This document shows positions 9,690 through 15,231 of a DNA stretch of 42,956 nucleotides, piece after piece. The notes under the pieces were generated by a model, which had not been told where the DNA came from, ran no database searches, and was given only the letters and a program-made list of their open reading frames with translations. Position numbers and translations under genes: made by a program. Source of the stretch: a virus (lineage: Duplodnaviria; Heunggongvirae; Uroviricota; Caudoviricetes); IMG/VR virus record IMGVR_UViG_2721755643_000001. The stretch is one strand, 5' to 3'. Position 1 is the stretch's first letter. Each line of letters starts with the position of its first letter.

Positions 9690-9750
9690 ATACAATCTAC
9701 AAATTAAAATTTAATTGGTCAATATATTTATTATTAAATTTGTAATTGCG
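9690..9750. promoter_or_regulatory. OL-like operator / leftward early promoter region
   Basis: AT-rich; the 15-mer ATTAAATTTGTAATT (9733-9747) recurs exactly at 10975-10989 in the repressor-cro intergenic region; inverted TACAAAT / ATTTGTA half-sites. Confidence 0.5.
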
Positions 9751-9790
9751 AACGATTGCATTAGTCCCAAAATGGGACTATCATGCAGTT

Positions 9791-10093
9791 ATGAAGATCA
9801 TCTCAGTTAAAACACTCAGGGATTTTTGGGCGGAGAATCCCGATGCAGAACAACCGCTAAGGGCATGGGTGGATGAGGCAGCAAAAGCTGACTGGAAAAG
9901 CCCGGCAGACATTAAGGCACAATACCGAACGGCTAGTATATTGAAAAGCCGGCGTGTGGTATTCAACATAAAAGGTAATCATTACCGTTTAATTGTTGCA
10001 ATTGCGTATCAGCGAGGATGGGTATTTGTTAAATTCATCGGAAGCCACAAGGAATACGATGCCATTGATGCTGATACCATCGAACTGGAGTAA
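9791..10093 (+). CDS. higB: Type II toxin, HigB/RelE-like mRNA interferase
   Basis: About 100 aa, MKIISVKTLRDFW...YRLIVAIAYQRGWVFVKFIGSHKEYD resembles HigB; toxin-first order, 2-nt gap to an HTH antitoxin. Confidence 0.75.
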   Translation: MKIISVKTLRDFWAENPDAEQPLRAWVDEAAKADWKSPADIKAQYRTASILKSRRVVFNIKGNHYRLIVAIAYQRGWVFVKFIGSHKEYDAIDADTIELE

Positions 10094-10095
10094 GC

Positions 10096-10455
10096 ATGAA
10101 CATCAAACCTATTCGTACAGAGCAAGATTATGAAGCCGCGTTGCGTGCTGTTGAGCCTATGTTCGACAATGAACCGGAAATTAACACGCCTGAGGGGGAT
10201 TTCTTTGAGGTGATGTGTTTGCTAATAGAGGAATATGAAAAAAAACATTATCCCATTGAGCCACCATCCCCAATTGAAGCTATAAGATTTCGCATGGAAC
10301 AGCAGGGGCTGACCGTGAAAGATTTGGAACCCGCAATTGGGAAAAAAAATCGGGTTTACGAGGTGTTGAATGGCACCAGAAGCCTTACGTTACCAATGAT
10401 TCGCCGTCTTCATAATCAATTTGGTATCCCCTTGGAAAGCTTGGTGGGATTATAA
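10096..10455 (+). CDS. higA: Type II antitoxin, HigA-like (XRE-type HTH)
   Basis: 119 aa immediately downstream of the toxin; C-terminal HTH-like segment GLTVKDLEPAIGKKNRVYEVLNG. Confidence 0.75.
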   Translation: MNIKPIRTEQDYEAALRAVEPMFDNEPEINTPEGDFFEVMCLLIEEYEKKHYPIEPPSPIEAIRFRMEQQGLTVKDLEPAIGKKNRVYEVLNGTRSLTLPMIRRLHNQFGIPLESLVGL

Positions 10456-10501
10456 AATCTGCTAGTCATTTGCCTGATACTCGTTCCAGAAAAGGAACGC
10501 A

Positions 10502-10894
10502 TCAGGCAGTTTTGTTTTTCTGCCGCAGTAACTCTTCAAGTTTTCGTTTATAGAAATCGCGTTTTTGCTCCATATCTCGAATGATCTGCTCTGCGTCGCT
10601 TTGAGGTAACTCATCTAAAAGCGATATGATTTTTCGTTGCTGTTCTGTAAGTTGCGGTTGGTTGTCATTAGTGGATACAGCCATCTTATCGCCGAGAGCT
10701 TCTTCTTCCATAAAGAACCAATGGACGGGATGTTGTGAGAGCTCTGCTAATTTTTCCAGTTTATCCATTCTTGGCATCACGCCTTTCAACCAACCTTGCA
10801 CGGATTGGGGTTTTACACCAAGACGTCTTCCCAGCTCTGACTGGTTTATATTCAATTCCTGCAACACCTGCTGAAGGCGTTTTACAAAGATCAT
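10502..10894 (-). CDS. Prophage repressor (CI-like, HTH_XRE)
   Basis: HTH QSELGRRLGVKPQSVQGWLKG; divergent from the Cro-like gene; ATG start with AGGGGTGG Shine-Dalgarno chosen over upstream GTG codons in the track ORF. Confidence 0.8.
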   Translation of the reverse strand: MIFVKRLQQVLQELNINQSELGRRLGVKPQSVQGWLKGVMPRMDKLEKLAELSQHPVHWFFMEEEALGDKMAVSTNDNQPQLTEQQRKIISLLDELPQSDAEQIIRDMEQKRDFYKRKLEELLRQKNKTA

Positions 10895-10939
10895 CACCAC
10901 CCCTCGAAAACTAATCTCGCAATTCTACAGAAAAAATTG

Positions 10940-11020
10940 ATAAGTGGCATTACAAATAGAAGTTGAAATTTAAAATTAAATTTGTAATTATCGATACCAT
11001 CGTAAAGTTTGGAGGGAAAC
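10940..11020. promoter_or_regulatory. OR-like operator region with divergent promoters
   Basis: Intergenic between divergent repressor and Cro-like genes; ATTACAAAT (10949-10957) and ATTTGTAAT (10980-10988) are inverted half-sites; 15-mer shared with 9733-9747. Confidence 0.55.
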
Positions 11021-11293
11021 ATGCAAAAAAGTACTCAAATAAAAATCCTGTCGATAATGAGCCAATCAGAATTAGGGCGTCGTCTTGGTAAAACTCCACA
11101 AACCATAAGTGGGTGGTTTAAAAAACGAGTTCCTGCGGAGGAGGTTATTCCTGCATGTGAGGCGCTTGACTGGGGAGTGACTCCGCATGAATTGCGCCCT
11201 GATAAATACCCTAACCCGACCGACGGTTTACCTGTTGGATGTAAGGTTAACAGATCAAATGAACCGGAGTTGATTCATGAAAATCAGGCATGA
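11021..11293 (+). CDS. Cro-like HTH regulator (YdaS-like position)
   Basis: HTH QSELGRRLGKTPQTISGW; GGAGGG Shine-Dalgarno before the ATG at 11021; first rightward gene. Confidence 0.75.
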   Translation: MQKSTQIKILSIMSQSELGRRLGKTPQTISGWFKKRVPAEEVIPACEALDWGVTPHELRPDKYPNPTDGLPVGCKVNRSNEPELIHENQA

Positions 11294-11702
11294 ACACATC
11301 CGCATGGCGATGAATACCTGGGCGCATCCGGACGGTGAGAAAGTACCGGCTGCAGAGATTACCAAAGCGTATTTTGAACTGGGAATGACGTTTCCGGAGC
11401 TGTACGACGATTCACATCCGGAAGCCCTGGCTCGCAATACTCAGAAAATTTTCCGCTGGGTGGAGAAAGACACCCCTGATGCAGTTGAAAAAATTCAGGC
11501 GTTGTTACCAGCGATCGAAAAGGCAATGCCACCTTTGCTGGTGGCCAGAATGCGCAGCCACAGTTCAGCTTATTTTCGGGAGCTGGTGGAGACGCGGGAA
11601 CGACTGGTGAGAGATGCTGATGATTTTGTCGCAGTGGCGATCGCCGGTTTCAACCAGATGAATCGTGGTGGCCCGGCGGGAAATGCCGTGGCTGTACATT
11701 GA
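11277..11702 (+). CDS. cII-like / YdaT-family regulatory protein (tentative)
   Basis: 141-aa ORF overlapping the Cro-like stop; position equals cII in lambda or ydaT in Rac; family is inference. Confidence 0.55.
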   Translation: MKIRHEHIRMAMNTWAHPDGEKVPAAEITKAYFELGMTFPELYDDSHPEALARNTQKIFRWVEKDTPDAVEKIQALLPAIEKAMPPLLVARMRSHSSAYFRELVETRERLVRDADDFVAVAIAGFNQMNRGGPAGNAVAVH

Positions 11703-11718
11703 GGAAGCATTAATGAAA

Positions 11719-12144
11719 TCATCGACGCTTGAGAAAAACCAGAAGGTTTTCAGCCCCTTTAATAAAAATCTCGGGGGAGTGAAATTCGTAAAGACCATCA
11801 ACAGAATAACTACCGCAATTTTCGCATGCCTTCTCATATGCCATGAAGGCATGGCTGAGTCTTCGCGCTTTCCTGGCGCTAAGCATTCTTTCGAGTTCAG
11901 CGATATCACGCGGGCTAATTTGCACTATGTTGAGAAGCCCTTTTCTGGCAAGGTTAATTTTTTGCATCAATTCGGCCGCGATAGGATCTGCGATTGCGTT
12001 GAATTCCTTGCGTCTGTCCCTGTTTACTGCCAGCCAATGACCGAAACAGATACCCAACCCAAAGGTAATCACGGTCCATATGAACGAAATGAGAGCTGGA
12101 TTCGTATTGAACAAGGTAACAAATTCACTCCAGATAGTATCCAT
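11719..12144 (-). CDS. Hypothetical membrane-anchored protein on the opposite strand
   Basis: 141 aa with one hydrophobic helix (LISFIWTVITFGLGICFGHWLAV) then a charged soluble domain; antisense to a long compositionally odd plus-frame ORF; weak Shine-Dalgarno. Confidence 0.55.
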   Translation of the reverse strand: MDTIWSEFVTLFNTNPALISFIWTVITFGLGICFGHWLAVNRDRRKEFNAIADPIAAELMQKINLARKGLLNIVQISPRDIAELERMLSARKARRLSHAFMAYEKACENCGSYSVDGLYEFHSPEIFIKGAENLLVFLKRR

Positions 12145-12446
12145 GGTTCTCGCCGATTACTCCTGGTTCTGCTGGCTGGCGCTGTGATTGTATTTCCGTC
12201 AGGGGTTTACTTTGGTCTAAAGGCAGTATGCAGACGTGATTATGCCCGAAGACGTTATACAGGGAAAGCACCGGTTCTTGGTGTTCTTTCAGTCCTGGTA
12301 ATCCCGAAGAAAGTGAAATGTCGCAGATGGCAGATCTGGGAGCAGCGTCAATGGTTCCGTGATATGAACCTTAGTCACGGTATTGATATTGCGTACCAGG
12401 ATACCCGGAACTGGAAAAAACTGGTAGCGGAGCGCTGGTATTAATT

Positions 12447-13487
12447 ATGGCTACTTCATGGCTCAGATTATGGCATGACATGCCAAATGATCCCAAGTGG
12501 CGAACAATTTCCAGGGTGTCAGGGCAGCCAATCGCAACGGTGATGGCGGTTTATGTTCACCTTCTGGTGAGTGCGTCACGAAATGTCACGACATGTCACG
12601 ACGTGTCACGACGTGGTCACATTGATGTCACGACAGAAGATTTGGCAAGTGCGCTCGACGTGACAGAAGAGTCAATTGATTCAATTTTGCGGGCAATGCA
12701 GGGGCGGGTACTTGATGGAGATTTAATCACCGGATGGGAAAAACGCCAGGTAGCGAAAGAGGATAACGGTAATGTTTCGCAAACCGCGAAATCCCCGGCA
12801 GAGCGGAAGAGAGCGCAGCGTGAGAGGGAAAAATCACGAAAAAAGGATGAGGGATGTCACGATGAGTCACGCATATGTCACGACATGTCACGACGAGTCA
12901 CGACAGATAAAGATACAGATAAAGAATTAAACCCCACACATAACGCGCGCGTGCGCGAGAGTGCTCCGACCAGCGAGTCGAACGGTACGCCGTTGCAGGT
13001 GGCGGAACCTGAATTTCCGGACGGCCTGAGTGAACCCATCGGGAAATTTCCGATGACCGATGGCTGGCATCCGTCGCCGGATTTTCGACGGCGGGCTGCA
13101 TTGTGGGGAGTGGCTCTGCCGGAGCCGGAATTTACACCTGCTGAACTTGCCGCATTCCGGGATTACTGGATGGCGGAGGGCAAAGTGTTCACGCAGGTTC
13201 AGTGGGAGCAGAAATTCGCCCGTCACGTAAATCACGTCAGGGCACAGGTCAAACCAGTCAGCAAGGGGGGCAGCCATGCAGCAGCACCAGGTGGCACCGC
13301 ATCACGGGCAGTTCAGGAAATTCGGGCAGCACGTGAGCAGTGGGAACGTGAAAACGGATTTATCAGCGACGGAAACGGCCTGGAAGCTGTGGGAACTCAT
13401 GGGGGAGGTTTATTCGAACCGCTGGACCCGGAAGAACGGAGCCGCACCTTCGAAGCTCTGGATTGCACAGATTGGCGCGATGACTGA
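12447..13487 (+). CDS. Replication initiator (O-like) with in-gene iteron origin
   Basis: 346 aa; contains two clusters of TGTCACGAC iterons translated as CHD/SRR repeats; sits before a P-like gene. Confidence 0.8.
12574..12634. repeat. Iteron cluster 1 of the replication origin
   Basis: TGTCACGAC at 12584, 12594, 12604 and 12626 with degenerate copies at 12574 and 12614; roughly 10-bp phasing. Confidence 0.8.
12855..12904. repeat. Iteron cluster 2 of the replication origin
   Basis: TGTCACGAT/AGTCACGCA/TGTCACGAC/TGTCACGAC/AGTCACGAC at about 10-bp spacing, followed by AT-rich AGATAAAGATACAGATAAAGAATTAAA. Confidence 0.8.
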
Positions 13488-13941
13488 GCAGCAAATCCGG
13501 CAGGTCTGCCGCCAGTGCATGGAGCGTTGTCGGGCGGGTGAAACATGGCCTCCGGACCTGGCTGAGTTTGTGGCGCTGATTTCGGAAAGCGGAGCCAATC
13601 CATTCGGTCTGACGGTGGATGCCGTGATGGAAGAGTACCGTCGCTGGCGCAATGAGTCCTGGCGATACGACGGGAGCGATAAATACCCGTGGCCCCAGCC
13701 CGTGCTGTATCACATCTGCCTCGAGATGCGTTCAAAAGGGATTGAGCGGCAGATGACCGAAGGGGAGTTAAAACGACTTGCAGAACGGCAACTGACGAAA
13801 TGGGCAAAGCATGTTGGTAATGGCTTCAGTGTTCCGCCCATCCGGCGACAACTGGCAGGACCAAAACGTCCTGCGGGACCAACGCCAATTGAGTTGCTGA
13901 AACAGGAGTATGAACGCCGGAAAGCGGCTGGTTTTGTTTGA
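13276..13941 (+). CDS. Replication protein P-like (helicase loader)
   Basis: C-terminal two thirds align by eye with lambda P ([10 protein letters not shown]..., [11 protein letters not shown]..., [13 protein letters not shown]); ATG at 13276 has an AAGGGGGG Shine-Dalgarno but overlaps the O-like gene by about 210 nt; later starts (13399, 13480) possible. Confidence 0.65.
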
Positions 13942-14503: not shown

Positions 14504-14929
14504 ATGGCAAAAGTATTTACACAGGAAGAGCGGGAAAAATTAAAGGGGCGGGTTGTTGAACTTGTACGTCTTAGCGGTCGCGAGACGTTACGGCAACTGG
14601 AAGCGAAAACAGGTGCGACAAGATATCTGTTGAGCGTTCTCGCCAGAGAGCTGGTTGCCAGTGGTGATGTATACAACTCTGACTACGGGTTATTTCCCTC
14701 TGAACAGGCTCGTAAGGACTGGCAAAACGCCCGCAAAAAACTATCAAGGGCAAAACTGAAGAAAAAAACATCTGTGGTTGATCCGGACCTTATCTGGTCG
14801 TTACCAGACGGCGAAATACGTCGCTACGACAGTCGCCTAAACATAATCTGTCGCGAGTGCCGGAAGAGCGAAGTTATGCAGCGCATATTGTCGTTTTATC
14901 AGGGTAATTTTCAGGAGGTGATGGCGTGA
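14504..14929 (+). CDS. Hypothetical protein
   Basis: ATG preceded by GGAGG; 141 aa; basic C-terminal half. Confidence 0.55.
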   Translation: MAKVFTQEEREKLKGRVVELVRLSGRETLRQLEAKTGATRYLLSVLARELVASGDVYNSDYGLFPSEQARKDWQNARKKLSRAKLKKKTSVVDPDLIWSLPDGEIRRYDSRLNIICRECRKSEVMQRILSFYQGNFQEVMA

Positions 14930-15231
14930 GGGTGAGAGTCTATATCGCCGGTCCAATGACCGGGTATAAAAATTTCAACCGTGAGGCGTTTCACAATGCG
15001 GAAGAGGAACTGAAACGGGAAGGGCATACCGTCTTAAACCCGGCAGTACTTCCGGACGGGCTGACACAGCCGCAGTACATGGATATCTGCATGGCGATGA
15101 TTCGTTGTGTGGATGCGATTTACATGCTGAAAGGCTGGCAGCGGTCAGCAGGCGCTAAGGCAGAACTGGCGCTGGCGGAGAAACTGGGGCATGCGGTGAT
15201 TTTTCAGGAGACAGCCAGTGTGCAAGACTAA
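14926..15231 (+). CDS. Nucleoside 2-deoxyribosyltransferase-like protein (DUF4406-like, tentative)
   Basis: GTG start after AGGAGG; N-terminal VYIAGPMTG motif characteristic of that fold; 101 aa. Confidence 0.55.
   Translation: MRVRVYIAGPMTGYKNFNREAFHNAEEELKREGHTVLNPAVLPDGLTQPQYMDICMAMIRCVDAIYMLKGWQRSAGAKAELALAEKLGHAVIFQETASVQD

Follow-up and report, generated by a model that had tools for sequence, protein, structure and literature searches.

Only few long antisense overlapping genes are known from bacteria and phages, and they are often contested, since a gene and a shadow open reading frame (ORF) are difficult to distinguish. Described embedded antisense genes include olg1 and olg2 of Pseudomonas aeruginosa (PMC8850804) as well as ano and other overlapping genes of E. 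coli O157:H7 (PMC5960689, PMC9927249; reviewed in PMC7457138). An embedded antisense pair as such is already known from these few bacterial cases. Here, a well-supported case of such a pair is described for a Rac/CP-933P-type lambdoid prophage of E. coli, the IMG/VR record IMGVR_UViG_2721755643_000001 (42,956 nt; this whole stretch is referred to as the window). A minus-strand gene of 141 amino acids (aa), named A, is nested in a plus-strand gene of 243 aa, named B, on an insert between the cII equivalent ydaT and the replication initiator gene. Neither A nor B belongs to a described family. A further point of reference is the immunity region of lambda, in which rexA-rexB and sieB are lysogen-expressed membrane exclusion or abortive-infection genes.

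The insert is best explained as a mobile two-gene module that uses opposite strands of the same DNA, with B translated through the complete antisense of A (probability about 0.75). A is the older, sequence-constrained gene, and B is part of the rightward early (PR) operon. The locus represents a natural experiment. Some lineages have the conserved gene together with the partner domain and others have it alone, and stops are missing from the antisense frame only in the former. The coordinates of all features are listed in Table 1.

A conserved gene and the open frame opposite it

A sequence-only reading of this region had pointed to an unusually long gap between the cII-like gene and the replication gene, and this gap is real. 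ydaT and the replication gene are 744 bp apart in the window and 71 bp apart in the insert-less relatives L002 and L003 (loci are referred to by L numbers). Since the 71-bp spacer lies between ydaT and the same replication gene, the 744 bp represent an insert. At near identity, it is found in only 6 of 5426 complete E. coli genomes. The O121 genome (L001, NZ_CP119441.1) is identical to the window across the queried 851 bp (11650-12500).

Two long ORFs occupy the same nucleotides on opposite strands of the insert. The minus-strand ORF of 141 aa is confirmed, with one N-terminal hydrophobic helix, and the plus-strand frame is indeed open over 259 codons from a GTG (11665-12444). Their register is exactly antisense: codon position 2 is opposite position 2, and A position 3 coincides with B position 1. 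B codons 1-144 are the exact-register antisense of A, and the ATG of B is located two codons before the antisense of A's stop codon.

DNA of relatives was obtained via database homologues of both proteins, and differences were tallied by codon position. Within the overlap, the window differs from L004, L007 and L009 by 51/12/20, 78/33/36 and 22/3/10 positions, respectively (A position 3/2/1). The ratio of nonsynonymous to synonymous substitution rates (dN/dS, Nei-Gojobori method, NG86) of A is 0.08-0.22. The excess at A third positions and the dN/dS values identify A as a protein-coding gene under purifying selection, so that its status as a gene is practically certain.

The A family comprises 44 proteins found by profile search. 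DNA-level scans yielded 34 A loci in reference genomes and 39 in viral contigs. Homologues are found in Yersinia, Morganella, Xenorhabdus, Serratia, beta-proteobacteria, Balneola, Desulfobacterota-type metagenome-assembled genomes and Virgibacillus, and many of those in these hosts have no antisense ORF at all. No Pfam domain was found in A family members. The alignment consists of a transmembrane (TM) helix, a near-invariant (G/N)RDRRKEFN and a helical C-terminal part ending in LLxFxKR(R/K). The start codon is invariant and the C-terminus is conserved. An AlphaFold2 model of A based on 32 sequences (predicted local distance difference test, pLDDT, 88; predicted template modelling score, pTM, 0.65) contains a long helix (residues 16-67), further helices and a small hairpin. 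Residues 17-40 are predicted to anchor the protein in the membrane. The earlier proposal of a genuine, conserved gene for a membrane-anchored protein, on an insert without counterpart in related prophages, is thus borne out. In other lineages, a conserved AAAGGAG is located 12-13 nt upstream of A's ATG (9 nt in L017, L064 and L065). The AGGAG bases upstream of A also encode the Leu-Leu at the start of the B TM helix.

Database annotation of the locus differs from this picture. In all six insert-bearing E. coli genomes, RefSeq (Prokaryotic Genome Annotation Pipeline, PGAP) lists the plus-strand ORF and not the minus-strand ORF. Together with the greater length of B and its tight packing in the operon, this would fit B being the only gene and the 141-aa ORF its shadow. 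That explanation is refuted: the substitutions and dN/dS in the overlap fit the minus frame and not the plus frame, stand-alone A homologues occur in distant phyla with an antisense frame full of stops, and A has a confident AlphaFold2 fold besides its invariant start codon and conserved C-terminus. In L001 (4064-4795), PGAP annotates B alone, while the record of phage phiP27 (L105, 2258-2929) annotates A alone. Other gene callers report A, B or both (L005, L007, L101).

In the exact antisense register, the B frame can acquire a stop only where A has a TTA, CTA or TCA codon, and such codons were counted at every locus. No B-frame stop occurs over 140-149 codons in any lineage whose frame runs past A's start into a B-type C-terminal domain. 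These lineages are the window, L009, L004, L007, L092, L011, L008/phiP27, L015, L063, L013, L017, L064, L018 and L101. At 60% A identity, the 14 lineages fall into 11 clusters, and at 50% into 7; identity is only 25-45% in many pairs. The 47 distinct A genes without a B domain have 1-15 stops each, and the enterobacterial ones of similar guanine-cytosine (GC) content have 2-7. The frame is thus stop-free in 11 of 11 clusters with a B domain versus 0 of 47 A genes without one (Fisher's exact test, p=4e-12). Synonymous resampling of A with the codon usage of 30 long ORFs of the window gave a probability of 0.008-0.045 per lineage for the absence of stops and a product of ~2e-19 over the 11 clusters; as the lineages are related, such joint probabilities overstate independence and significance.

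The avoidance is specific for the stop-generating codons. Among the 12 A genes of B lineages, TTA and CTA account for 0 of 179 Leu codons and TCA for 0 of 109 Ser codons (288 codons together). The same genes use TTG, CTT or CTC for 142 of the 179 Leu codons and the rare AGA or AGG for 65 of 137 Arg codons, and they contain ATA 16 times. In 18 A genes without B, TTA and CTA make up 57 of 256 Leu codons (22%) and TCA 25 of 156 Ser codons (16%). Codon optimisation was considered as a cause of stop avoidance and rejected, since these genes are rich in non-optimal Leu codons and in rare Arg and Ile codons. Base composition was likewise rejected, since non-B homologues of similar GC content (0.40-0.50) carry 2-7 stops. 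The specific avoidance of TTA, CTA and TCA, together with the GC-matched controls, therefore excludes both.

A shadow ORF would accumulate stops at the codon-usage rate across homologues, which the B frame does not. The second frame is maintained by selection and not by chance: B's frame across A is actively kept open. The view of the plus frame as antisense noise has to be given up, as the frame is stop-free across all of A in every lineage with the C-terminal domain, with a per-lineage chance of 0.8-4.5%. The sequence-only reading had also named expression and conservation of the plus-frame ORF as a finding that would overturn its minus-strand gene. The plus frame is indeed maintained, but so is the minus frame.

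The plus-strand gene B and its two halves

The 300 bp upstream of A (12145-12446) had been described as apparently non-coding DNA that provides A with its own upstream space. Instead, this DNA is the conserved 3' part of B and encodes its C-terminal 100 residues. Differences between the window and L007, L009 and L013 in 12145-12444 amount to 29/19/44, 3/4/12 and 34/31/64, respectively, an excess at plus-strand third positions, and dN/dS is 0.21-0.30 (NG86). The region almost certainly codes on the plus strand; its motifs are conserved, and it survives as a separate 112-aa gene in L104, from which A has been deleted.

An exhaustive profile search of 1.84 billion representative proteins found only 22 B proteins, nearly all of 195-289 aa. 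The C-terminal domain, which in the window ends in a basic/aromatic tail, falls into two classes. The long class (~100 codons) has a TM helix, a second hydrophobic stretch and RRWQIWEQRQWFRDM, followed by HG..AYRD..WKK. In the short class (~70 codons), the TM helix precedes ISPxILEKRRRWMRYHxLKAKRWHRKHP..YPMPRKTFWQWxWF. A and the C-terminal domain of B recombine independently. The window and L004 share 81% identity in A and 33% in the C-terminal domain, while L007 and L011 are 41% identical in A and 68% in the C-terminal domain of B. Despite this swapping, the continuity of the frame is always kept.

An ATG or GTG with a Shine-Dalgarno sequence is located within 15 nt of A's stop codon in 14 of 14 lineages examined. 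The Shine-Dalgarno sequence in other lineages is GGAGG, AGAGG or GGGGAG. At the other end, the B stop codon abuts or overlaps the start of the next gene in most lineages, with TGAttATG or ATGA in lineages other than the window. The 2-nt spacing between B and the replication gene in the window is consistent with translational coupling.

Between A's start and the TM helix of B, no start codon is available; ribosomes can therefore arrive at the conserved domain only if they initiate within the overlap or upstream of it. A start inside, e.g. at the ATG/GTG antisense to A's conserved His36, would give a small plus-strand gene of ~100-135 aa and leave A as the only gene in the overlap, with a shadow ORF upstream, essentially as in the sequence-only reading. 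Long shadow ORFs are most to be expected in the exact-register antisense frame, as only TTA, CTA and TCA give stops. In addition, each His codon of A is an in-frame ATG or GTG in B, and L016 has such a short form. However, ~105 upstream codons would then be free to gain stops, of which ~3-4 are expected per lineage, yet all 14 early-operon lineages lack them. In the window, the internal ATG is not preceded by a Shine-Dalgarno sequence, and the Shine-Dalgarno sequence and start codon at A's 3' end are present in all lineages examined. An internal start is thus very improbable. These patterns make it likely that B is translated through the antisense of A.

Within the overlap, B shows no clear amino-acid constraint beyond the open frame and a signal-like hydrophobic segment. 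In every B protein, the segment lies at a distance of 30-60 residues from the N-terminus, with basic residues before it and AXA-like motifs after it (e.g. GMA/E, QVKA/E and QVRA/Q). Given A's protein sequence, the actual synonymous codons of A give this segment a hydrophobicity that equals or exceeds the mean of stop-free resampled sequences in 13 of 13 lineages. Individual p values are 0.014-0.48, and their Fisher combination is ~6e-4; the signal is weak, and the lineages are not independent.

Several points weigh against the translation of B through A. The case for translation of either frame is wholly evolutionary, and the relatedness of the lineages has been stated above. The overlapped half of B has an apparent dN/dS of 0.74-1.23, which is descriptive only, as standard dN/dS is confounded by the overlap. 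At A-conserved columns, synonymous codons, and hence B residues, vary freely. The AlphaFold2 model of B, based on a multiple sequence alignment of only 5 sequences, has an overall pLDDT of 37.6, with values of 24-41 for the N-terminal half and 56-59 for the C-terminus, and is too poor for fold searches. On the side of A, the Shine-Dalgarno-like motif is 12-15 nt from the ATG in most lineages, which is a long spacing, and no positionally conserved sigma-70 promoter was found upstream of A among 13 lineages. Searches for a known defence, exclusion or other functional family of A or B gave 0 matches in PADLOC and nothing significant in Pfam, NCBIfam and PHROGs; the best family-scan match is phrog_13469 (no function assigned, E=0.016). 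Finally, L104 (1129-1500) is a deletion derivative in which A is cut to its first ~10 codons, leaving ~12 antisense codons (MHILWCQFITHG followed by a stop). Its B has shrunk to the C-terminal domain, a gene of 112 aa that starts at a GTG with a new Shine-Dalgarno sequence and is located between the cro-like and CP76 (cII) genes. The C-terminal domain therefore functions without A or the N-terminal half.

Translation for its own sake would account for part of this evidence. In this case, the open plus frame would serve solely to keep ribosomes on the early transcript. This would prevent Rho-dependent polarity across 430 nt of antisense RNA that would otherwise remain untranslated, and it would bring ribosomes to the C-terminal domain and the coupled replication gene; the N-terminal 144 residues would be functionless as protein. 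Such a role is compatible with the apparent lack of amino-acid constraint and very low AlphaFold2 confidence of the N-terminal half, with the L104 derivative, and with the location of full-length B ORFs. All of these are found in the rightward early operon, directly after cro or ydaT/cII, and extend from the end of the upstream gene to the start of the next one. Similarly, the L016 pair (2276-2590) is located outside the operon, with A directly downstream of cI. It has only a short B (<=104 aa) with a Trp/Arg-rich tail that overlaps A's first ~32 codons, and the remaining antisense frame across A contains 7 stops.

In contrast, 134-140 antisense codons are open in L052 and L067, which are outside the early operon, and the ORF starts exactly at a signal peptide there. 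In L052/P0062, where the cassette adjoins baseplate genes, the antisense frame is interrupted by a single stop close to the 3' end of A. The first residues of B, immediately after this stop, are those of a classic signal peptide (MKNIK...). In L067 (2360-2824), A is directly downstream of cI and faces a 154-aa antisense ORF with a signal peptide at its start, a TM helix at its end and no tail. The presence of the signal-like segment in all lineages and its preference by the synonymous choices of A also argue against a functionless N-terminal half, which makes translation for its own sake unlikely. It would still require translation of the overlapped frame and is a variant of the two-gene module rather than its opposite. 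The antisense B-like ORFs of L016 and L067 further indicate that the association of A and B is not confined to the early operon.

Proposed expression and possible function of the pair

For the two-gene module, the following course of B translation is proposed. Ribosomes would initiate at ATG 11713, with the Shine-Dalgarno sequence directly after ydaT, and read through the 144-codon antisense of A, which would be constrained only to lack stops and to carry the signal-like segment. They would continue into the conserved C-terminal domain with its TM helix and Trp/Arg-rich cytoplasmic tail and terminate 2 nt before the ATG of the replication gene. Full-length translation would most likely take place from the PR transcript. 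The TM helix of B is followed by a strongly basic loop, and the C-terminus would therefore be cytoplasmic and the N-terminus outside. The hydrophobic segment would export the long N-terminal part, with the TM helix keeping the N-out/C-in orientation. Since a 148-residue extension outside needs an export signal, this would explain why the only retained feature of the N-terminal half is the signal-like segment. A would be a protein of the inner membrane in which a short N-terminal tail is followed by a single TM helix, the basic juxtamembrane RDRRKEFN and a cytoplasmic helical bundle.

The two proteins may be expressed alternately, A while PR is repressed in the lysogen and B in the lytic cycle. 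Their transcripts would be convergent and fully complementary over 426 nt, so that PR activity should suppress A and PR repression should allow it. Within the window, only one candidate promoter for A matches the consensus, a leftward site at 12496-12467. It is not conserved in other cassette lineages and is absent from the closest cassette-bearing relative, L009.

In lambda, the oop RNA is a leftward antisense transcript of 77 nt between cII and O that starts from the pO promoter. Leftward transcription in the window would similarly originate at the start of the replication gene and reach as far as the 3' end of the cII-like gene. In contrast to oop, this unit would be ~950 nt long and protein-coding, with a promoter and a terminator that are consensus matches only. 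The insert-less L002 (3060-3180) contains the same promoter-like sequence and a hairpin (CCGGAAGCGATCCGG) in its 71-bp spacer. The L002-type site and hairpin resemble the lambda oop/pO unit, replaced or extended by the cassette.

The location of A in other prophages bears on its function. In L020 and L022, A is directly downstream of cI and has no B. In Xenorhabdus (L102), it is preceded by an Arc-like gene, and the region is immI-like. The position directly downstream of cI, that of rexAB in lambda, suggests that A is an accessory membrane protein made in the lysogen, of the kind that acts in exclusion or abortive infection. By this analogy of position, a role of A in exclusion or abortive infection is proposed tentatively. 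It is speculative to the same degree that A and B form a linked, mutually exclusive pair. A would then act in defence or exclusion in the lysogen, and B, on PR firing, would switch off or counteract A or otherwise prepare the membrane for the lytic cycle. B would be dual-coded, with a signal peptide, a periplasmic segment antisense to A, a TM helix and a Trp/Arg-rich tail.

The cassette is also found in phiP27, an inducible Stx2e phage. In L008 (3851-4672), as in phiP27 L13, the A frame is open for ~130 codons upstream of the conserved ATG, antisense through the C-terminal domain of B. This opening is seen in no other lineage and is the cause of the mis-annotated long L13. It is probably due to chance.

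Prophage setting and comparison with known systems

Table 1 Features of the insert and its surroundings in the window
Feature	Position	Strand	Description
higB-higA	9746-10455	+	HigB-family toxin and helix-turn-helix (HigA-like) antitoxin, adjoining the cI-like repressor
cI-like repressor	10502-10900	-	
cro-like gene	11009-11293	+	
ydaT, cII equivalent	11277-11702	+	Pfam YdaT_toxin; phrog_163 'CII-like'
Leftward terminator-like hairpin	11528-11545	-	inside the 3' part of ydaT; consensus match only
B translation start	11701-11715	+	Shine-Dalgarno GAGGA 11701-11705 overlapping the ydaT stop TGA, 7-nt spacer, ATG 11713
Insert (cassette)	11703-12446		744 bp, ydaT stop codon to replication-gene start codon
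Gene B	11713-12444	+	243 aa from ATG 11713; PGAP WP_001300539.1, hypothetical protein
Gene A	11719-12144	-	141 aa, bitopic membrane protein, wholly nested in B
B hydrophobic signal-peptide-like segment	11806-11856	+	residues 32-48, ITTAIFACLLICHEGMA, then ES
A juxtamembrane family signature NRDRRKEFN	11998-12024	-	residues 41-49; from alignments
A TM helix	12025-12096	-	residues 17-40; Kyte-Doolittle hydrophobicity 2.0, part of the long AlphaFold2 helix; prediction
B conserved C-terminal domain	12145-12444	+	from codon-position pattern, dN/dS and motifs
B TM helix	12157-12219	+	residues 149-169, within the C-terminal domain
A Shine-Dalgarno-like AGGAG	12160-12164	-	15 nt upstream of A's ATG
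B second hydrophobic stretch	12268-12306	+	
B motif RRWQIWEQRQWFRDM	12322-12366	+	conserved
B stop codon/replication-gene start	12442-12449	+	TAATTATG, 2-nt spacing
Replication initiator gene	12447-13487	+	O-like, DnaT-like domain, probable internal iterons; lambda-P-like gene next
Leftward promoter-like site	12467-12496	-	TTGGGA, 18 nt, TG-CATAAT, inside the start of the replication gene

The higB-higA genes occupy the site where lambda has rexAB and where CP-933P has paaR2-paaA2-parE2 (RefSeq annotation of the identical region in E. coli O121). Downstream of the insert, the DnaT-like replication gene contains the 10-bp repeat ATGTCACGAC in two clusters of ~3-4 copies each (12573-12622 and 12844-12914), and ACAGATAAAGA is duplicated at 12903-12925. 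The repeat clusters and the duplicate are probably origin iterons, as found in the lambda O gene. In L001 (7277-8849), an IS600 element breaks a DUF4406 gene and a DUF1627 gene is split; the window counterpart ORF (14926-15231) is intact.

The junction of cro and ydaT (11270-11287) carries TTGATTCATGAAAATCAG, which has 1 mismatch to the published YdaT operator TTGATTN6AATCAA; OM/PRE of CP-933P occupies the same place at this junction (PMC9986795). This is the sole good match, and no YdaT operator boxes were found near A and B. An Rfam scan of 10400-13600 gave no match, and a literature search on the locus, including the accession WP_001300539, yielded no paper.

The inconsistent annotation of A and B, with PGAP listing B in O121 and the phiP27 record listing a falsely extended A, is a systematic annotation problem. 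If confirmed experimentally, the locus would be a tractable model for the overprinting of a new coding region on an older gene. It would also add two kinds of membrane protein: the new and uncharacterised A family, which occupies the rexAB position in many prophages, and B, a small early protein whose gene is coupled to the replication gene. If A and B do form a linked pair, this would be a conserved multi-genus case of a whole protein domain born by overprinting the antisense of an older gene.

An annotated relative is L13 of phiP27 (NP_543065.1, hypothetical protein), a true A homologue of 42% identity that follows a cro-like gene and has a full B ORF open opposite to it. In contrast to the window, L13 is annotated as 223 aa with a spurious N-terminal extension of 82 residues, and B is unannotated. 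Moreover, the C-terminal domain of phiP27 B is only 43% identical, and the downstream genes are Ant/Rha instead of the replication gene.

With rexAB and sieB, A shares its small size, its predicted membrane anchor, its location in the immunity or early region and an orientation that fits expression while PR is repressed. As in rexAB, the A homologues of L020, L022, L016 and L067 are immediately downstream of cI on the same strand. The A gene of the window, in contrast, is outside the cI operon and nested antisense in the PR operon, and A resembles neither Rex nor Sie nor any PADLOC model in sequence or fold.

The likeness to olg1/olg2 and ano lies in coding frames on opposite strands, one gene being fully embedded in the other, and in evidence from ORF maintenance and selection. 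Three differences are apparent. The embedded gene A is old, widespread and strongly constrained, and overprinting concerns the embedding gene B, whose N-terminal half is the young part. The evidence is a natural control, 11 stop-free deep lineages versus 0 of 47 relatives, rather than expression data. Finally, the pair forms a mobile prophage cassette that is found across Escherichia, Klebsiella, Enterobacter, Kosakonia, Pectobacterium, Yersinia, Morganella and Xenorhabdus.

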